Shown: piece after piece, positions 21,992 through 31,341 of the stretch
How the letters are laid out: each line of letters begins with the position of its first letter
Position numbering within the stretch: position 1 is the stretch's first letter
Assembly: GCF_030384885.1 (NCBI RefSeq)
Contig: NZ_CP128613.1
DNA length: 64,000 nucleotides
DNA from: Escherichia coli
GTDB lineage: Bacteria; Pseudomonadota; Gammaproteobacteria; Enterobacterales; Enterobacteriaceae
Reading direction: 5' to 3' (one strand)
Notes under the pieces: generated by a model
What the model saw: only the letters and a program-made list of their open reading frames with translations
Told to the model about the DNA's origin: nothing
Databases searched by the model: none
Made by a program: the position numbers and the translations under genes

Positions 21992-22018
21992 TGACTCTCT
22001 CCTCTACAGGATAATATT

Positions 22019-23407
22019 ATGGAAAACAAGTCTGCTCGTGCAAAGGTCCAGGCTTTTGGGGGCTTTTTGACTGCAATGGTCATTCCCAATATTGGTGCTT
22101 TTATTGCCTGGGGTTTTATAACGGCGTTATTTATTCCCACCGGTTGGTTGCCTAACGAACATTTCGCCAAAATTGTCGGCCCCATGATCACCTATTTATT
22201 ACCGGTGATGATTGGTTCTACCGGTGGCCATTTAGTCGGCGGTAAACGCGGCGCGGTAATGGGCGGAATAGGGACAATTGGTGTAATCGTCGGCGCAGAG
22301 ATTCCGATGTTCCTTGGCTCAATGATCATGGGACCGTTAGGTGGGCTGGTCATAAAATATGTCGATAAGGCACTGGAAAAACGCATACCTGCTGGTTTTG
22401 AGATGGTTATCAATAACTTCTCATTAGGTATCGCTGGGATGCTCCTTTGTCTGCTGGGTTTTGAAGTTATCGGCCCGGCGGTGTTAATTGCCAATACTTT
22501 CGTCAAAGAGTGTATTGAGGCGCTGGTACATGCGGGCTATCTGCCTTTGCTGTCAGTCATCAATGAACCGGCGAAAGTGCTTTTCCTCAATAACGCGATA
22601 GATCAGGGCGTCTATTACCCGTTAGGGATGCAACAGGCTTCAGTTAACGGTAAATCCATCTTCTTTATGGTGGCGTCCAACCCTGGGCCTGGCTTAGGGC
22701 TGCTGCTGGCATTTACCTTGTTTGGTAAAGGGATGAGTAAACGTTCTGCGCCTGGGGCGATGATTATTCACTTCCTCGGCGGCATCCACGAACTGTATTT
22801 CCCGTATGTGCTGATGAAGCCACTGACCATTATTGCCATGATTGCGGGCGGTATGTCTGGCACCTGGATGTTTAACTTACTGGACGGTGGTCTGGTGGCT
22901 GGTCCAAGTCCGGGGTCTATCTTTGCTTACCTTGCACTGACGCCGAAAGGCTCGTTCCTGGCGACAATTGCCGGTGTTACGGTAGGTACCCTGGTGTCCT
23001 TTGCTATCACTTCCGTAATACTGAAGATGGAAAAAACGGTGGAAACGGAGAGCGAAGATGAGTTTGTGCAGTCCGCCAATGCGGTTAAGGCGATGAAACA
23101 AGAAGGTACATTCTCGTTAAGCCGGGTTAAGCGTATCGCCTTTGTTTGCGATGCGGGAATGGGCTCTAGCGCGATGGGCGCAACCACCTTCCGTAAGCGC
23201 CTGGAAAAAGCGGGGCTGGCAATAGAAGTAAAACATTACGCGATAGAAAACGTGCCTGCAGATGTGGATATCGTCGTTACTCACGCTAGTCTGGAAGGGC
23301 GCGTGAAACGTGTGACGGATAAACCGCTGATATTGATTAATAACTATATTGGCGATCCCAAACTCGACACTTTATTTAATCAATTAACCGCTGAACATAA
23401 AAACTGA
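22019..23407 (+). CDS. cmtA: Mannitol-type PTS enzyme IICB component (cryptic cmt system)
   Basis: 462-aa ORF; polytopic EIIC followed by EIIB domain (FVCDAGMGSS). Confidence 0.85.
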   Translation: MENKSARAKVQAFGGFLTAMVIPNIGAFIAWGFITALFIPTGWLPNEHFAKIVGPMITYLLPVMIGSTGGHLVGGKRGAVMGGIGTIGVIVGAEIPMFLGSMIMGPLGGLVIKYVDKALEKRIPAGFEMVINNFSLGIAGMLLCLLGFEVIGPAVLIANTFVKECIEALVHAGYLPLLSVINEPAKVLFLNNAIDQGVYYPLGMQQASVNGKSIFFMVASNPGPGLGLLLAFTLFGKGMSKRSAPGAMIIHFLGGIHELYFPYVLMKPLTIIAMIAGGMSGTWMFNLLDGGLVAGPSPGSIFAYLALTPKGSFLATIAGVTVGTLVSFAITSVILKMEKTVETESEDEFVQSANAVKAMKQEGTFSLSRVKRIAFVCDAGMGSSAMGATTFRKRLEKAGLAIEVKHYAIENVPADVDIVVTHASLEGRVKRVTDKPLILINNYIGDPKLDTLFNQLTAEHKN

Positions 23408-23421
23408 TTGCCGAGGTAAAA

Positions 23422-24699
23422 ATGAAAACCAAAGTTGCTGCTATTTATGGCAAGCGAGATGTCCGTCTGCGCGAATTTGAACTGCCCAAAATTACCGATA
23501 ATGAACTGCTGGTGAGTGTAATTTCTGACAGTGTGTGTTTATCGACCTGGAAAGCGGCGTTACTCGGTAGCGAACATAAACGGGTGCCCGACGATTTAGA
23601 AAATCATCCGGTCATTACCGGGCATGAATGTGCCGGGATTATTGTTGAAGTGGGGAAAAATCTTACCGACAAATATAAAAAAGGCCAACGTTTTGTATTG
23701 CAACCGGCGATGGGGCTACCAAGCGGGTATTCTGCGGGATACAGCTACGAATATTTTGGCGGTAATGCTACCTATATGATTATTCCAGAGGTAGCCATTA
23801 ATTTGGGCTGCGTATTACCGTATCACGGATCTTATTTTGCTGCGGCGTCTCTGGCAGAGCCGATGTGCTGCATTATTGGCGCTTATCATGCCAATTATCA
23901 CACCACGCAATATGTTTATGAGCATCGCATGGGCGTGAAACCTGGTGGCAATATTGCGCTGCTGGCGTGTGCGGGCCCGATGGGGATAGGCGCTATCGAT
24001 TACGCTATTCACGGCGGCATACAACCGTCGCGGGTAGTGGTGGTCGATATCGACGACAAACGCCTGGCACAGGTGCAGAAGCTGCTGCCGGTGGAGCTGG
24101 CGGCCAGCAAAGGCATTGAGCTGATATATGTGAATACCAAAGGAATGGCCGATCCGGTACAGAAGCTGCGGGCGCTGACGGATGATGCCGGGTTCGATGA
24201 CATTTTTGTTTATGCGGCGGTGCCTGCTGTCGTTGAGATGGCTGACGAATTACTGGCGGAAGATGGCTGCCTGAACTTCTTTGCCGGTCCGACGGATAAA
24301 AACTTCAAAGTGCCGTTTAATTTCTACAACGTCCATTACAACAGTACGCACGTCGTCGGTACATCGGGTGGTTCAACGGACGATATGAAAGAGGCGATTG
24401 CCCTGAGCGCCACGGGGCAGTTGCAACCGTCGTTTATGGTGACGCATATCGGTGGCCTGGATGCAGTGCCAGAAACCGTTCTCAATTTACCGGATATCCC
24501 CGGTGGTAAAAAACTCATTTACAACGGCGTTACCATGCCGCTCACTGCCATTGCCGATTTTGCCGAAAAAGGCAAAACAGATCCGCTGTTTAAAGAGCTT
24601 GCGCGGCTGGTTGAGGAAACGCACGGCATCTGGAATGAACAGGCCGAGAAATATCTGCTGGCGCAATTTGGCGTTGATATCGGGGAGGCCGCGCAATGA
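23422..24699 (+). CDS. yggP: Zinc-dependent polyol/alcohol dehydrogenase-like protein
   Basis: 425-aa ORF; MDR-type dehydrogenase motifs (HECAG, GAGPMG); synteny with cmtBA. Confidence 0.8.
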   Translation: MKTKVAAIYGKRDVRLREFELPKITDNELLVSVISDSVCLSTWKAALLGSEHKRVPDDLENHPVITGHECAGIIVEVGKNLTDKYKKGQRFVLQPAMGLPSGYSAGYSYEYFGGNATYMIIPEVAINLGCVLPYHGSYFAAASLAEPMCCIIGAYHANYHTTQYVYEHRMGVKPGGNIALLACAGPMGIGAIDYAIHGGIQPSRVVVVDIDDKRLAQVQKLLPVELAASKGIELIYVNTKGMADPVQKLRALTDDAGFDDIFVYAAVPAVVEMADELLAEDGCLNFFAGPTDKNFKVPFNFYNVHYNSTHVVGTSGGSTDDMKEAIALSATGQLQPSFMVTHIGGLDAVPETVLNLPDIPGGKKLIYNGVTMPLTAIADFAEKGKTDPLFKELARLVEETHGIWNEQAEKYLLAQFGVDIGEAAQ

Positions 24700-25661
24700 T
24701 GTCCCTGGCGTGGCCATTATTTCGCGTTACGGAGCAGGCAGCGTTGGCTGCCTGGCCGCAAACCGGATGTGGCAACAAAAATAAAATTGATGGCCTGGCG
24801 GTCACCGCGATGCGCCAGGCATTAAACGATGTCGCTTTTCGTGGGCGAGTGGTTATCGGCGAGGGAGAAATTGACCATGCGCCGATGCTGTGGATTGGCG
24901 AGGAGGTGGGCAAAGGCGATGGGCCAGAAGTCGATATCGCGGTTGATCCCATTGAAGGTACGCGGATGGTGGCGATGGGGCAGAGCAATGCGCTGGCGGT
25001 CATGGCTTTCTCCCCTCGAGATAGCCTGTTACACGCGCCCGATATGTATATGAAAAAACTGGTTGTTAATCGGCTGGCGGCGGGCGCGATTGATCTGTCT
25101 TTGCCTCTGGCGGACAACTTGCGCAACGTGGCGAAAGCGTTAGGCAAACCGCTGGACAAGCTGCGTATGGTTACGCTGGATAAACCGCGCCTGAGTGCCG
25201 CAATTGAGGAAGCGACGCAACTGGGCGTGAAGGTTTTTGCCCTGCCGGATGGCGATGTTGCCGCCAGCGTGCTGACCTGCTGGCAGGATAATCCTTACGA
25301 TGTGATGTACACCATCGGCGGTGCGCCGGAGGGCGTGATTTCTGCCTGTGCCGTTAAAGCATTAGGCGGGGATATGCAGGCCGAGCTGATTGACTTTTGT
25401 CAGGCTAAAGGGGATTACACGGAAAATCGGCAGATTGCAGAGCAGGAACGCCAGCGTTGCAAGGCAATGGGCGTTGACGTTAACCGTGTGTACTCGCTCG
25501 ATGAACTGGTGAGGGGGAACGATATCCTCTTTAGCGCTACGGGCGTGACGGGCGGTGAGTTGGTGAATGGTATCCAACAGACGGCGAATGGGGTGCGGAC
25601 GCAGACATTACTGATCGGCGGCGCGGACCAAACGTGTAATATAATAGACTCCCTGCATTGA
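24696..25661 (+). CDS. yggF: Fructose-1,6-bisphosphatase class II (GlpX paralogue)
   Basis: 321-aa ORF; GlpX-family motifs; 4-nt overlap with yggP. Confidence 0.85.
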   Translation: MMSLAWPLFRVTEQAALAAWPQTGCGNKNKIDGLAVTAMRQALNDVAFRGRVVIGEGEIDHAPMLWIGEEVGKGDGPEVDIAVDPIEGTRMVAMGQSNALAVMAFSPRDSLLHAPDMYMKKLVVNRLAAGAIDLSLPLADNLRNVAKALGKPLDKLRMVTLDKPRLSAAIEEATQLGVKVFALPDGDVAASVLTCWQDNPYDVMYTIGGAPEGVISACAVKALGGDMQAELIDFCQAKGDYTENRQIAEQERQRCKAMGVDVNRVYSLDELVRGNDILFSATGVTGGELVNGIQQTANGVRTQTLLIGGADQTCNIIDSLH

Positions 25662-25682
25662 TGGTGATCTATCGGAAGACCA

Positions 25683-26192
25683 ATGGCGACGCTGACAGAA
25701 GATGATGTGCTTGAGCAACTGGACGCACAGGACAATTTATTGTCATTTATGAAAACTGCACATGCCATTTTGCTCCAGGGGATACGCCAGTTTCTGCCGT
25801 CGCTGTTTGTCGATAACGATGAAGAGATCGTGGAATATGCAGTGAAGCCGTTACTCGCTCAAAGCGGCCCGCTTGACGATATTGATGTTGCGCTACGTTT
25901 GATTTTTGCACTGGGGAAAATGGACAAATGGCTGTACGCCGATATCACGCACTTTTCCCAGTTCTGGCATTACCTGAATGAACAGGATGAAACGCCCGGA
26001 TTTGCCGATGACATTACCTGGGATTTTATCAGCAACGTCAATAGCATAACCCGCAATGCGACGCTCTATGACGCGTTAAAAGCGATGAAGTTCGCTGATT
26101 TCGCCGTCTGGTCAGAGGTGCGTTTTAGTGGGATGGTCAAAACGGCGCTGACGCTGGCAGTAACGACCACCTTAAAGGAATTAACGCCGTGA
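25683..26192 (+). CDS. yggD: MtlR-like protein YggD (annotated as fumarase E in E. coli)
   Basis: 169-aa ORF MATLTEDDVLEQLDAQDNLLSF; synteny. Confidence 0.75.
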   Translation: MATLTEDDVLEQLDAQDNLLSFMKTAHAILLQGIRQFLPSLFVDNDEEIVEYAVKPLLAQSGPLDDIDVALRLIFALGKMDKWLYADITHFSQFWHYLNEQDETPGFADDITWDFISNVNSITRNATLYDALKAMKFADFAVWSEVRFSGMVKTALTLAVTTTLKELTP

Positions 26193-26902
26193 AAATTGAC
26201 TTAACGGTGAATGGTCTGAAGGTACAAGCACAGTACCATGTTGATGAGATAGAAAATGTACATAAACCGTTGCTGCGTATGTTGGCGGCCTTACAGACGG
26301 TAAATCCGCAGCGGCGTACCGTGGTTTTTCTTTGCGCTCCGCCGGGGACGGGTAAATCTACCCTAACCACTTTCTGGGAATATCTCACGCAACAAGACCC
26401 GGAACTACCCACTATTCAGACGCTGCCGATGGATGGTTTTCACCATTACAATAACTGGCTGGATGCGCATCAATTGCGCCCCTTTAAAGGCGCACCAGAG
26501 ACATTCGATGTGGCAAAACTGGTGGAAAATCTGCGCCAGGTAATGGAAGGGGATTGTACGTGGCCGCAGTACGATCGACAAAAGCATGAGCCTGTTGAAG
26601 ATGCGTTGCACGTTACCGCACCACTCGTCATCGTCGAAGGAAACTGGTTGTTGCTGGACGACGAGAAGTGGTGCCAGCTTGCGCAATTTTGTGATTTCTC
26701 GATCTTTATCAACGCGCCAGCTACTGCGTTGCAGGAACGACTGGTGGGGCGCAAGCTGGCGGGAGGGTTATCGCTGGCAGACGCAGAAGCCTTTTATGAC
26801 CGTACCGATGGGCCGAATGTTCGCCGGGTGCTGGAAGAGAGTCTGCCTGCAAATTTGACCTTAATGATGACCGCTACGGGTGAATATCGTCTGGTGGATT
26901 AA
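26189..26902 (+). CDS. yggC: Putative P-loop kinase YggC
   Basis: 237-aa ORF with Walker A PPGTGKST; 4-nt overlap with yggD. Confidence 0.75.
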   Translation: MKIDLTVNGLKVQAQYHVDEIENVHKPLLRMLAALQTVNPQRRTVVFLCAPPGTGKSTLTTFWEYLTQQDPELPTIQTLPMDGFHHYNNWLDAHQLRPFKGAPETFDVAKLVENLRQVMEGDCTWPQYDRQKHEPVEDALHVTAPLVIVEGNWLLLDDEKWCQLAQFCDFSIFINAPATALQERLVGRKLAGGLSLADAEAFYDRTDGPNVRRVLEESLPANLTLMMTATGEYRLVD

Positions 26903-27584
26903 CGTTCCTGATTACACCATCTTCCAGTCGCACCACACGAGAGAAATGACGCCGGGTAAATGCGGCGTCATGACTGATTGCTACGACGCTCGTGCCTCGC
27001 TGGCGGCACTTTTCCAGCCAGCTTTCAAACACGCTCATCCAATTTTCGTCAAAATCCCGACTCGGCTCGTCCAGCAGCAATAGCGGCGGAGAGAGTGCTT
27101 CCAGGCAGGCGACGGCGACCATCCGTCGCTGCGCACTATGCAGATCTAACGGATGCGCGCTGGCAGTGTCTGCTAACTGACAGCATTGCAGGGCAGCATT
27201 GGTACGTTGAGTGATTTCATCCGCCAGGCATTTTTGCAGTTTCAAACCAAATGCGATCTCGTCAGCGACGGTGCTGTGAAAAAGCTGGTTTTCCGCTTCC
27301 TGAAACAGTACGCCAATCTTTGCTGCACGTTGGCGGTTTTTCAGGTTTTTCATCGCCTGTTGTTGCAGTATAACCGTACCGGTTGTGGGCGTAAGAAGAC
27401 CTGCCATTACTCGTAACAGCGTCGATTTTCCCGCGCCATTGTCGCCGGTCAGCGCCAACCATTCACCTTGTTTGAGTTGCAGAGAAATGTCGCAAAGACA
27501 ATCCGTTGCCGCGCCAGGCCAGCGATAAGACATCTGATTTAACGTTAACATAGTGGCTGGAGCGCTCCGTTTTGCAATTGCCAC
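26874..27584 (-). CDS. ECF/ABC transporter ATPase subunit (A2-like, degenerate signature motif)
   Basis: 236-aa ORF (alternative start Met12 at 27551, overlapping upstream stop as ATGnTAA); Walker A GDNGAGKST, Walker B LLLLDEP, H-loop ISHD; signature LHSAQRR instead of LSGGQ; 3' end overlaps yggC convergently. Confidence 0.75.
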   Translation of the reverse strand: MAIAKRSAPATMLTLNQMSYRWPGAATDCLCDISLQLKQGEWLALTGDNGAGKSTLLRVMAGLLTPTTGTVILQQQAMKNLKNRQRAAKIGVLFQEAENQLFHSTVADEIAFGLKLQKCLADEITQRTNAALQCCQLADTASAHPLDLHSAQRRMVAVACLEALSPPLLLLDEPSRDFDENWMSVFESWLEKCRQRGTSVVAISHDAAFTRRHFSRVVRLEDGVIRNVNPPDDIHP

Positions 27585-28228
27585 GCTTGCTGGCAGTAGT
27601 TCAGGAAAGGTGTGCGATGACGTTCAAAAAGAATAATCAGCGAACCACGTTCAAACGCCCAGTGTTGTAAGCGCTGCAACAGCATTTCGCTGGCCTGCGG
27701 CGTCAGGCGACTAAAGGCTTCATCAAGAATTAATAGTTTTGGCTGCATCGCGATGGCGCAGGCGATGACCACGCGCTGTGTCTCTCCACCGGAGAGTGTT
27801 GCCGGGTGACGATGGCGCAACGGCTGGCACTCGGTCAGAGTCAGGGCGGCATCAATCCGCGCCATAATCTCCTCTTCAGCAAGACACAGATTTTCTGGCC
27901 CAAAGGCAACTTCTTCTTCCACGCTAAAGGTACAGCCGGAGAGCTGCAAATAGGGCGATTGCTGAACGAGCTGGATGGTGGCGGATTGTTCATTAAGCGG
28001 GAGATACCCAATGGGCGTACCGAGAAGCGTCCCCGTGCCGGTTATCTCTCCTGGCAGAAAGTCCGGATACCAGCCCGCCATCAGTTGCGCCAGCGTACTT
28101 TTGCCACAGCCGTTGTCGCCAAAGATGGCGACTATCCCCGGTTTGACATAGTGAAAGTCATAACAGAACGGAGGGTGCGTTGAGTGTGTCGGGCAATAGC
28201 GAAACTGTTCTAACGTAACCATATCCAC
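27545..28228 (-). CDS. ECF/ABC transporter ATPase subunit (A1-like)
   Basis: 227-aa ORF; Walker A GDNGCGKST, signature LSGGETQR, Walker B LLILDEA. Confidence 0.75.
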   Translation of the reverse strand: MDMVTLEQFRYCPTHSTHPPFCYDFHYVKPGIVAIFGDNGCGKSTLAQLMAGWYPDFLPGEITGTGTLLGTPIGYLPLNEQSATIQLVQQSPYLQLSGCTFSVEEEVAFGPENLCLAEEEIMARIDAALTLTECQPLRHRHPATLSGGETQRVVIACAIAMQPKLLILDEAFSRLTPQASEMLLQRLQHWAFERGSLIILFERHRTPFLNYCQQAWQLQNGALQPLC

Positions 28229-28917
28229 GCTCCGAATTCTGCCAGCATCAGCAAGATCATGGCGTAACGTGCCACTTTTTCCAGGTTACTGTCAGGCGGT
28301 GCCCATAACGTAGTGCGCCGGTTGTGGATCCGAAATGCCCGCATATCCAGCGCCGCACCACGGATAGCCAGATCGTTTAGCGCATTGTGTGTTAGCGGAA
28401 TAATTAGCGCGGGTATAGCACGTAAACGCTGATACCAGCCCTCATCCAGCGGCACGCCACGGGCGCGCTGCGCTTCATGAATAATCGCTAATTGCCGTTT
28501 TAACTGCTCAACGACCAACAAAGGCCCGGCGAACAGATAAGCGACGCCCGGCGGCAGGCGAGAAGCAAACAAAGCGCGGATAAAACGTTGCACTGGGACG
28601 AATTGCATCCACAACTGCGAGGTTGAAACAATCGCGAGAATCCGCAGCCAGAGCGTAATAGCATGCGTCCACCGTTCTGGCGAGCGTGGCGTGCCGTTTA
28701 GCCATTCTGTCAGCCAGCCACCGTGTACCAGCCACAGTCCAGCCCCCAGCGAGAACATCAGCCAGACAACATATTTTGCCCGCCGCCGCGTGGCCTTTAG
28801 CGCAATAAGGCAGAAAAAGGTCGCCGCGCTATAGACTGTCAGTATTGTCTGTGTGGGCAGGATAAGCGTGGTGCAGGCCGCCAGCGCCCACAGCGTTAGG
28901 GATGTAAACGGATGCAT
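28210..28917 (-). CDS. ECF transporter transmembrane (T) component, CbiQ/EcfT family
   Basis: 235-aa polytopic ORF with C-terminal AQRARG and AIRGAALDMRAF motifs typical of EcfT; start abuts stop of upstream gene. Confidence 0.75.
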   Translation of the reverse strand: MHPFTSLTLWALAACTTLILPTQTILTVYSAATFFCLIALKATRRRAKYVVWLMFSLGAGLWLVHGGWLTEWLNGTPRSPERWTHAITLWLRILAIVSTSQLWMQFVPVQRFIRALFASRLPPGVAYLFAGPLLVVEQLKRQLAIIHEAQRARGVPLDEGWYQRLRAIPALIIPLTHNALNDLAIRGAALDMRAFRIHNRRTTLWAPPDSNLEKVARYAMILLMLAEFGAWIWLR

Positions 28918-29499
28918 TTAGCGCACGGCAGCCATTGCCGGAAAATGGCGCGTGGTGCGAATCGGCAGCTGACGCAGTAAAAGCCAGACAATCACCGCTG
29001 TAAGAATTTTATCGACCAGGTTTGCGCCTATCACCGTAATCGCCACCGACTCCACCAGGTTTTGCCCCATAGAGTGCATCCAGGCAACGAACAAATCGGC
29101 TCCGCTACCGGTGACACCGCCGAACAGCGCAGTACGCAGCGGTACAGCGACGACCGTTACTGCAAGCGTAATAATCACGCCGCTGACAACGACTTTTGGC
29201 AGGGTGCGAAACCAACCCGCTCGCGCCAGCCAACCGGCGACCAAGCCAATAACCATCGCCACGGGGGCAAAGGCGGCGGCGATCGGGTCGGTGAGCAATC
29301 CCCAGAGTAAATTGGTCAGTAAGCCGGTCAGCATCCCGATCACCGGACCAAGCAGTACCGCGCTAATAAGTGTGCCGATGGAGTCGAGAAATATAGGTAA
29401 TTTGACCATGCTGGCCAGTTGCCCGCCAATCATATTGATGGCGATAGAGATAACAATCAACACCAGTGCTTGACTGGAAAAGTGGCGACGCGCCATAAG
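28918..29499 (-). CDS. ECF transporter substrate-specific (S) component-like membrane protein
   Basis: About 193 aa from Met33 (ORF could start at 29595); about six TM helices; LPIFLDSIGT motif resembling ECF S components (YkoE/ThiW-like); substrate unknown. Confidence 0.65.
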   Translation of the reverse strand, partial: LMARRHFSSQALVLIVISIAINMIGGQLASMVKLPIFLDSIGTLISAVLLGPVIGMLTGLLTNLLWGLLTDPIAAAFAPVAMVIGLVAGWLARAGWFRTLPKVVVSGVIITLAVTVVAVPLRTALFGGVTGSGADLFVAWMHSMGQNLVESVAITVIGANLVDKILTAVIVWLLLRQLPIRTTRHFPAMAAVR

Positions 29500-29518
29500 A
29501 AAACCTCTCTGAAAGTAG

Positions 29519-29950
29519 TTATTTAACGGGGGAAATATGCAATTCGTCGTAACCAGAAAGCGCGCAAGGTTGGCGGCTAAACGCCAGCTCCTCAAGGCAG
29601 CCGATCACCAGTTCAAGCGTGGTCCGCACGGTACAGCCGGGCATCATATGACCGCCAAGTATCGTGCCGTGTGGATCGGAAACGCAGAGATGAAGATGTT
29701 CACCACTCTGTTCCAGTGTGCCGTTCAATGCGATGACTTCGAACTTACCGCTTAGTAGGGCCGTGTTTTCTTGCCCGGCATAGCGTAAGGCGACGTCAGT
29801 CAGACTGCCGGTACAACCTGCAATCCACGCGGCGTGGAGTTGTTGTTGCTGCGCGAAGGCGCGTAATTGGGAGAGAACTTCCTGTCCTGGGAGCAGGCGC
29901 AGCGCGTAAAAGCGTGCGGAGGAAGAATATGGGTAGGGCAATGTCATCAT
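29519..29950 (-). CDS. DUF296/PPC-domain protein (first gene of the ECF module)
   Basis: 143-aa ORF; pattern RLLPGQEVLSQL...AWIAGCTGSL...LSGKFEVIALNGTL...HLHLCVSD...GGHMMPGCTVRTTLELVI fits the PPC (DUF296) fold consensus. Confidence 0.7.
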   Translation of the reverse strand: MMTLPYPYSSSARFYALRLLPGQEVLSQLRAFAQQQQLHAAWIAGCTGSLTDVALRYAGQENTALLSGKFEVIALNGTLEQSGEHLHLCVSDPHGTILGGHMMPGCTVRTTLELVIGCLEELAFSRQPCALSGYDELHISPVK

Positions 29951-30321
29951 TGGAGTACTCCGAAACTCGGACGTATTGCGGATAATATCGACGCTGCATC
30001 AGTCATATTCTGATATAAGTCAGGGTTTGTGACGGCACAACGAAAAGATTTTGCTACGCTTATTCGTGATTCTGCAAAGTGGAATAAATTCCACAGGGGC
30101 GGGGCTGAAAACGTGACGTAAGTCAGATAATTGTCTTCTTTGACTGGACAATCATTCCTTTTATTCCACGTTTCGCTTATCCTAGCTGAAGCGTTTCAGT
30201 CGATTAAATGTTCGACAATTAACCAATCAGTCGCAGTTTGCGACAGGTAAGGTTTCCCCGGACGATTTGCTGGATTACTCTGTCTGGCAAATTTGCTCAG
30301 GGAAAACCTTGCAGGAGATCT

Positions 30322-31341
30322 ATGACCGTACGCGTAGCGATAAATGGCTTCGGTCGCATCGGGCGTAATGTGGTTCGTGCTTTGTATGAATCCGGACGCC
30401 GGGCGGAAATTACCGTGGTGGCAATCAACGAACTGGCGGATGCTGCGGGCATGGCGCATTTGTTGAAGTATGACACCAGTCATGGCCGTTTTGCATGGGA
30501 AGTACGACAGGAACGCGATCAACTTTTTGTTGGTGATGACGCCATCCGCGTATTGCACGAACGTTCACTGCAATCGCTCCCATGGCGTGAACTGGGCGTC
30601 GATGTGGTTCTTGACTGCACCGGCGTATATGGCTCCCGCGAGCATGGCGAAGCGCATATTGCCGCCGGGGCCAAAAAAGTGCTCTTTTCACATCCTGGTA
30701 GTAACGATCTCGACGCGACCGTTGTTTACGGCGTCAATCAGGATCAACTTCGTGCGGAACACCGCATCGTTTCTAACGCTTCCTGTACCACGAATTGCAT
30801 AATTCCCGTCATCAAATTGTTAGATGATGCGTACGGTATTGAGTCCGGCACTGTGACCACAATTCACTCCGCCATGCACGATCAACAGGTTATTGATGCA
30901 TACCATCCTGACCTGCGTCGCACCCGGGCAGCCAGCCAGTCGATCATTCCGGTCGATACTAAACTGGCCGCCGGTATCACACGATTTTTTCCGCAATTTA
31001 ATGATCGCTTTGAAGCGATTGCGGTACGTGTGCCAACCATAAATGTGACGGCAATCGATTTAAGCGTGACGGTGAAGAAACCTGTAAAAGCCAATGAAGT
31101 CAACCTGTTGCTGCAAAAAGCAGCACAAGGTGCATTTCATGGTATAGTTGACTATACGGAATTGCCGTTGGTCTCTGTAGATTTTAACCACGATCCGCAC
31201 AGTGCCATTGTCGATGGCACCCAAACCCGGGTCAGTGGCGCACACCTGATCAAAACGTTGGTCTGGTGCGATAACGAATGGGGCTTTGCTAACCGAATGC
31301 TCGACACGACGTTAGCTATGGCTACTGTTGCTTTCAGGTAA
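30322..31341 (+). CDS. epd: D-erythrose-4-phosphate dehydrogenase
   Basis: 339 aa from [25 protein letters not shown]; GAPDH-family; track ORF has a 28-codon upstream extension. Confidence 0.9.

Follow-up and report, generated by a model that had tools for sequence, protein, structure and literature searches.

Between yggC and epd in a 64,000-nucleotide stretch of Escherichia coli DNA (contig NZ_CP128613.1 of assembly GCF_030384885.1; hereafter the window) lie five minus-strand open reading frames (ORFs), close-packed over 26874-29950 and divergent from epd. In the direction of the operon their order is lmiA(PPC)-ecfS-ecfT-ecfA-ecfA', that is, a gene for a PPC (DUF296) domain protein followed by the genes of a putative energy-coupling factor (ECF)-type ATP-binding cassette (ABC) importer. 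The features are as follows, with names from the NCBI Prokaryotic Genome Annotation Pipeline (PGAP) where these were used.

29519..29950, minus strand: lmiA (z4267 orthologue), encoding a 143-aa PPC/DUF296 protein with an invariant His85/His87/His101 site.
28918..29496, minus strand: ECF S (substrate-capture) component (z4268 orthologue), 192 aa, assigned from PF12822, a structural model and the PGAP name.
28210..28917, minus strand: ECF T (energy-coupling) component (z4269 orthologue), 235 aa, assigned from PF02361 CbiQ, motifs and the PGAP name.
27545..28222, minus strand: ABC ATPase A1 (z4270 orthologue), 225 aa, with canonical Walker A, LSGGE signature and Walker B.
26874..27551, minus strand: ABC ATPase A2 (z4271 orthologue), 225 aa, with canonical Walker A and B and H-loop, and a degenerate signature, LHSAQ.
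26834..30100, no strand: segment without a BLASTN match in K-12, 3267 bp, equal to the published extent of O island 119 (OI-119).

As read from the sequence, the A2 start and the A1 stop overlap in ATGtTAA (27551-27545), the A1 start overlaps the T stop by 13 nt, and the S stop abuts the T start codon in TAAATG (28920-28915). A preliminary description of this stretch, made from the sequence before any database search, had reported the five packed ORFs, the ATGnTAA overlap and the S-T abutment, all of which are present in the letters, together with the motifs GDNGCGKST, GDNGAGKST, AQRARG, AIRGAALDMRAF and LPIFLDSIGT, every one of which was found in the window proteins. At the other end of the block, the last base of A2, 26874, falls within the 3' end of yggC, whose stop is at 26902, giving the convergent overlap that had also been described, here measured at 29 bp. 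The S start is most likely the ATG at 29496 behind AGAGAGG, which yields 192 aa and leaves a 22-nt gap after the PPC stop; an upstream TTG at 29595 was set aside in favour of this ATG, and the PPC and S genes thus do not overlap. The PGAP annotation of E. coli 2013C-4282, which is identical over the block, gives exactly matching products, including 'ECF transporter S component'.

The assignment of the four transporter genes draws on profile searches and on structure prediction. S matches PF12822 (Pfam, E 1.8e-8) and the NCBIfam model NF045596, 'CD3073 family putative ECF S component', at 135.5 bits, below its equivalog cutoff of 180, so that its subfamily appears related to, yet distinct from, NF045596. 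Because a PDB sequence search with S found no match, structure prediction was needed. With the AlphaFold2 model of S (predicted local distance difference test score 89.6), the first 17 Foldseek matches in the PDB were all ECF S components (RibU, FolT, PanT, ThiT, BioY and 4HUQ_S), with probabilities of 0.84-1.00 and of 1.00 or 0.99 for the first 15. The residues conserved across the S family are N21, D38, T42, D162 and K163, and no His, Cys or Met is among them. T matches PF02361 CbiQ (E 7.5e-5) over model positions 15-210 of 216; its motifs AQxxRG (149-154) and ALxxRxF (189-195) are kept in at least 95% and at least 89%, respectively, of 63 homologues, in which R153, G154, L190 and F195 are invariant. 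The best NCBIfam matches are ECF_ATPase_1 and CbiO for A1, and ECF_ATPase_2 and ECF_ATPase_1 for A2. Walker A and B are found in both ATPases, together with the signature LSGGE in A1 and its degenerate counterpart in A2. At 225 aa each, they match positions 17-231 of a 279-position model and are without the C-terminal extension typical of EcfA/A'; their homologues in other phyla measure 246-286 aa. No gene for a solute-binding protein lies within the block. We infer that S-T-A-A' is a dedicated (group I) ECF-type ABC importer; the uptake of a micronutrient or precursor, as put forward in the preliminary description, is plausible. That description had already proposed an ECF-type module led by a PPC-domain gene, and on this point the hidden Markov model searches, the structure prediction of S and the PGAP annotation agree with it, with profile searches placing both membrane proteins, S and T, in ECF families and the structure search placing S there.

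Two kinds of fusion were seen among relatives of S. In one, S is joined to a CbiQ-type T in single polypeptides of 460-490 aa (P0153, P0170, P0171, P0178, P0243). In the other, the S-component domain is fused N-terminally to sensor histidine kinases (P0221, P0242, P0232), in line with the published suggestion of the S fold as a link between transporters and receptors (PMC11109136).

The block is already known, both as a named island and as an ECF operon. OI-119 of enterohaemorrhagic E. coli (EHEC) O157:H7 consists of five genes, z4267-z4271, the first of which, lmiA (z4267), encodes a DUF296 protein, while z4268 and z4269 carry the label 'hypothetical' and the last two, z4270 and z4271, encode ABC ATPases (Liu et al. 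2020, PMC7667037). The same study describes lmiA as horizontally acquired and as a regulator of ler, activated by PhoP and induced at low Mg2+: the lmiA promoter is bound and activated by PhoP at low Mg2+, LmiA is needed for ler activation, and a Zn site at His85/87/101 is proposed (PMC7667037). A review gives the size of OI-119 as 3267 bp (PMC8565820), LmiA has effects on acid resistance and biofilm as well (PMC11657066), and the corresponding Salmonella operon has been described as a putative five-gene ECF transporter (PMC11481890). An arrangement with a PPC gene in promoter-proximal position, which the preliminary description did not recognise, is therefore on record in print (PMC7667037, PMC8565820, PMC11481890) as well as in the PGAP annotation. 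The published lmiA promoter elements were located in the window as follows.

30104-30122, minus strand: PhoP DNase I footprint, CTTACGTCACGTTTTCAGC, an exact match to the EHEC O157:H7 sequence of PMC7667037.
30108-30124, minus strand: PhoP box, GACTTACGTCACGTTTT, an exact match to PMC7667037.
30072-30077, minus strand: lmiA -35 element, TTGCAG, an exact match to the primer-extension mapping of PMC7667037.
30048-30056, minus strand: lmiA -10 element, TAGCAAAAT, an exact match to PMC7667037.
30040, minus strand: lmiA transcription start, T, 90 nt upstream of the ATG, as in PMC7667037.

All of these elements and His85/87/101 are exact and correctly spaced in the window, and the BLASTN gap relative to a K-12-type genome (26834-30100) is 3267 bp. 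Because the published motifs are matched exactly and the gap equals the reported island length, we identify the region with good confidence as OI-119, organised as one operon with a PhoP-activated promoter divergent from epd. Judged by its letters, the lmiA promoter is intact in the present strain. A generic scan for sigma-70 promoters and terminators gave counts near chance and missed the mapped lmiA promoter. Inside the S gene, 29063-29080 on the plus strand is the counterpart of an intragenic sigma-54 site found by chromatin immunoprecipitation (ChIP) in Salmonella STM3072 (TGGCCCATTGAATGCATC, PMC3844500); it differs from the Salmonella site by 3 mismatches, the -24 GG element (TGCCCC) included, and is probably non-functional here.

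LmiA itself matches PF03479 (Pfam, E 3e-27), has the PPC fold, and is 78% identical to the Salmonella orthologue solved by structural genomics (2HX0/2NMU). A scan of species-representative genomes with a 9-sequence S alignment yielded 80 loci, and tblastn showed a PPC gene upstream of S, on the same strand and 15-170 bp away, in 67 of these. The PPC-S loci span Proteobacteria, Chloroflexi, Synergistota, Spirochaetota and Desulfobacterota, and include those of Proteus, Providencia, Morganella, Hafnia, Budvicia, Aeromonas, Wohlfahrtiimonas and Laribacter, of Rhizobium, Brucella, Mesorhizobium, Kaistia and Paracoccus, and of Desulfobulbaceae, Synergistaceae, a spirochaete and many Chloroflexi. 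[quoted passage not shown] Because the linkage holds across phyla, the ancestral role of the PPC protein appears to be tied to the transporter; the PPC protein is an obligate, co-inherited partner of the ECF family and not a free-standing acquired regulator.

In 49 PPC partners, the most distant at 35% identity, the invariant residues number 19, among them R18, S49, R56, E71, H85, H87, D92, H101, T110, T111, E113, R126 and E136. Such a pattern would be typical of a ligand or catalytic pocket, and the conserved three-His pocket probably binds Zn. The nearest folds outside the family are those of Zn enzymes (alpha-acetolactate decarboxylase and PTD012). No catalytic activity is known for any bacterial PPC protein. 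The AT-hook is the DNA-binding element of the plant AHL proteins, from which the 'DNA-binding' product name of PPC proteins is inherited; the 143-aa LmiA has no AT-hook (R-G-R-P or G-R-P) and consists of the PPC domain alone. The ler-promoter site of LmiA had no match at three or fewer mismatches anywhere in the 64-kb window, and autoregulation by LmiA through a site of this type was set aside.

For the substrate, the best lead came from relatives of the transporter. Immediately upstream of S, 10 genome loci have a gene for an IUNH-type (RihA/UriH-like) nucleoside hydrolase; most of these loci are without PPC, and two loci have the order PPC, nucleoside hydrolase, S. Three metagenomic relatives have the arrangements GntR-IUNH-S-T-A-A with a 5'-nucleotidase nearby, LacI/PfkB with three IUNH genes and then S-T-A-A-MFS, and IUNH-S-T-A-A-MFS, and one Bacillota locus adds uridine phosphorylase. 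Pairing of an S component with such a hydrolase is characterised in Clostridioides difficile, where queK (IUNH) accompanies qrtT (PF12822) (PMC11477304, PMC11130926). The conserved polar residues of S occur in both branches, the PPC-linked and the hydrolase-linked; our best guess at the substrate is therefore a ribonucleoside or a compound like one, perhaps a pyrimidine nucleoside in modified form, though the guess is well short of probable.

Outside Enterobacteriaceae, the PPC-linked loci have mostly unrelated neighbours (xthA, an RND adaptor, pyrD, ssb, Fic, GNAT), and only a YedF-like gene recurs. This gene, of ~120 aa, is placed immediately ahead of PPC or behind A2 in 11 loci, which belong to Chloroflexi and a betaproteobacterium (L046, L051, L054, L056, L060, L066-L069, L075, L077). 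It matches only the C-terminal, DsrE-like half of YedF, a selenium-metabolism protein (TIGR03527, 106-107 bits at a cutoff of 110), and carries the motif C-x-T-C-L-D-Y. One S relative is followed by a TudS-like gene, and bacterial fusions of DUF296 to glutaredoxin are on record (PMC2679010). The YedF-like neighbour and the glutaredoxin fusions hint at thiol or selenium chemistry; the possible sulfur or selenium connection is only a hint.

The product annotated for yggC (26189-26902) is a nucleoside/nucleotide kinase family protein, which is suggestive given the nucleoside lead, and the yggC C-terminus differs markedly between module-bearing and K-12 haplotypes. A functional link between yggC and the module was set aside as speculation: K-12 keeps yggC without the module, and yggC is part of the upstream operon.

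A bolder reading, tentative and more likely wrong than right, is that LmiA is the conserved, Zn-dependent ligand-binding or catalytic partner of an ancient nucleoside-type ECF importer and not primarily an acquired virulence regulator, that Mg-sensing LEE control in EHEC reports the uptake or processing of a gut metabolite, and that bacterial PPC/DUF296 proteins in general are mis-annotated small-molecule enzymes or sensors. In the reading that we favour, that of an ECF importer with LmiA as its partner, expression would rise when PhoQ/PhoP sense low Mg2+; S would capture a small molecule at the outer face and topple against the T scaffold, and the heterodimeric ATPase, with one consensus and one degenerate ATP site, would drive its release into the cytoplasm. 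LmiA would bind or convert the imported compound, and the reported activation of ler would be a lineage-specific output of this transporter-linked role.

A number of points weigh against this favoured reading. Published electrophoretic mobility shift, ChIP and footprint data on ler favour a regulator role, and a structural argument cannot refute them. Deletions of z4268-z4271 had no adherence or LEE phenotype, adherence and LEE expression being all that was assayed, and lmiA alone complemented the deletion of the whole island (PMC7667037); because of these two results, the published LmiA phenotype is independent of the transporter. The nucleoside lead comes from relatives in which S is only 40-47% identical to the S described here, so the substrate may differ, and in most PPC-linked loci the neighbours are uninformative. 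No riboswitch or other RNA was found upstream by an Rfam search of 26000-31000 at E <= 1, and the same kind of search in 10 distant loci returned no relevant RNA, only a 6S RNA. As regards the transporter, the NCBIfam scan of T was without any match and the Pfam CbiQ match is weak but consistent, while the ATPases score 103-149 bits against TIGR04521, TIGR04520 and TIGR01166, below the cutoffs of 212-330. Co-transcription of the five genes as a single operon is inferred from their spacing alone.

One rival reading is that LmiA is a true stand-alone transcription factor and that the four transporter genes are a functionally unrelated, possibly decaying passenger. The binding experiments on the ler promoter (electrophoretic mobility shift, ChIP followed by quantitative PCR, and footprinting), the complementation and deletion results and the effects on acid resistance and biofilm (PMC7667037, PMC11657066) would all be in keeping with this, as would the shortness of the ATPases and the degenerate signature of A2. 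Against it stand the PPC-S-T-A-A' order, kept in 67 of the 80 loci across phyla with no known LEE; the intactness of all five ORFs, here and in thousands of genomes; a PPC domain that is without an AT-hook and has Zn enzymes as fold relatives; and the absence of the ler-type LmiA motif from the whole window. We therefore consider a stand-alone factor unlikely.

The legacy 'cobalt transport' annotation implies an ECF importer for cobalt (or nickel), its metal-sensing regulator being the PPC protein, and the idea has been examined for Salmonella STM3071. The T and A genes do match CbiQ- and CbiO-named models, and the three His residues invariant in the PPC protein could coordinate Co, Ni or Zn. 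These names, however, are generic for ECF T and A subunits. CbiM and NikM have an N-terminal Met-His metal-binding end, whereas S is a PF12822 protein that starts MARRHF, is without such an end and matches no CbiM model. No small CbiN/NikN-like gene is present in the block, the conserved S residues (N21, D38, T42, D162, K163) offer no His, Cys or Met, and the sister clades are linked to nucleoside hydrolases and not to metal enzymes. Cobalt as the substrate is thus unsupported, and a cobalt or nickel system with a metal-sensing PPC protein is quite improbable.

For the history of the locus, an alternative is that pathogenic lineages gained it by horizontal transfer, as a genomic island inserted between yggC and epd. 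As the preliminary description had expected, the five genes are absent from K-12 and yggC is adjacent to epd there; BLASTN against K-12-type genomes and 5426 complete E. coli genomes bore this out. The module, at 80% or more of the query, is present in 3319 of the 5426 (61%), and the others match the epd-side flank only; at 99% identity or more, the window's module allele was found in only 7 genomes. Insertion would also agree with the status of the block as a named O island described as horizontally transferred (PMC7667037), and with the unusual divergence of the left flank (22001-26833, cmtA-yggP-glpX-fumE-yggC), which is 93.9% identical to K-12 as opposed to 98.4% for epd-pgk-fbaA. Against this, the five genes stand divergent from epd-pgk in E. 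albertii, E. whittamii, Atlantibacter, Citrobacter, Klebsiella, Pseudescherichia, Superficieibacter, Phytobacter and Silvania, with yggC-fumE-glpX on the other side of the module in many of these enterobacterial loci. There is no integrase, insertion sequence (IS), tRNA or repeat boundary at the module, the lack of the first three having been noted at the outset, and its GC content is like that of its surroundings.

Fine alignment placed the indel relative to K-12 from about the yggC stop (26903) to ~30080. K-12 keeps a diverged PhoP-box stretch up to ~30083 (30083-30124 aligned with L002 4979-5024), with several mismatches in the footprint, while the lmiA core promoter and everything downstream are gone. 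Four unrelated module-less genomes share a junction at 99% identity. Because of the synteny in outgroups, the one shared junction and the decayed region upstream of lmiA, the polymorphism is read as a deletion, and the simplest history suggested by these comparisons is an ancestral enterobacterial operon that was removed once, by a ~3.2-kb deletion now segregating in E. coli. The preliminary description's view that the block was inserted is thereby reversed, and this history contradicts the published horizontal acquisition of lmiA. An insertion in pathogenic lineages is, given the outgroup synteny that already contradicts it and the presence of the block in 61% of complete genomes, highly unlikely.

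Other observations concern the haplotypes around the indel. The interval 24700-26830 is at least 99% identical in only 2 of 5415 genomes and 90-95% identical in 3492, and the module is 96.1% identical to that of E. albertii, about as close as to most E. coli. Together with the difference between the flanks, this suggests old, recombining haplotypes.

An uptake system for Mg2+ or another hard cation, as might be read from the exact PhoP motif, a promoter that PhoP binds and activates at low Mg2+ (PMC7667037) and the oxygen ligands (Asn, Asp, Thr) among the conserved S residues, is most improbable, since PhoP controls many genes unrelated to Mg2+ transport, the hydrolase genes linked to the sister clades speak for an organic substrate, and in Salmonella anaerobic induction of the operon has been reported as well. 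Mg2+ transporters of the ECF type are not known.

As a genome feature the block is ordinary: it is a named and annotated island, the first gene of which has two dedicated papers, while the labels on its transporter half are still 'hypothetical' or 'cobalt'. In print, OI-119 is taken to have been gained by horizontal transfer, whereas the comparisons made here point to an ancestral operon and one deletion in K-12-like E. coli. New here are the cross-phylum pairing of PPC with ECF genes (67 of 80 loci), the invariant three-His site, the Zn-enzyme fold neighbours and the hydrolase-linked sister clades. The pairing, the His pocket and the hydrolase linkage constitute a lead that can be tested, on the transporter as well as on the large DUF296 family, and K-12 offers a natural null background in tests of module function; as to the actual role of LmiA and the transporter, the lead that remains is a moderate one.

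Among known systems, the closest is OI-119 of EDL933, which has the same five genes in the same order, the same yggC-epd position, the same LmiA length and His85/87/101; the window allele differs from it in having only ~95% DNA identity to most E. coli copies. Salmonella STM3071-STM3075 is the same operon, discussed in that host as a cobalt system and for its anaerobic induction, and the host has no LEE target. Alpha-acetolactate decarboxylase and PTD012 are three-His Zn enzymes, to which the PPC protein is 11-18% identical at half their size. The likeness to QueK-QrtT lies at the level of family and neighbour, a PF12822 S component beside an IUNH hydrolase, as seen in the ~40% identical relatives; the differences are that neither 26000-31000 of the window nor any of 10 related loci has a preQ1 riboswitch, that QueL is missing, and that E. 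coli has PPC in place of the hydrolase. Like the group I ECF systems BioMNY, CbiMNQO and YkoEDC, the module joins one S, one T and two A genes in a single operon that encodes no solute-binding protein, and the S fold and T coupling motifs of that group are also found here. It departs from them in an S family, close to NCBIfam CD3073, that is without a characterised member, in 225-aa ATPases lacking the C-terminal extension of typical EcfA/A', and in the extra soluble PPC gene that occupies the first position.

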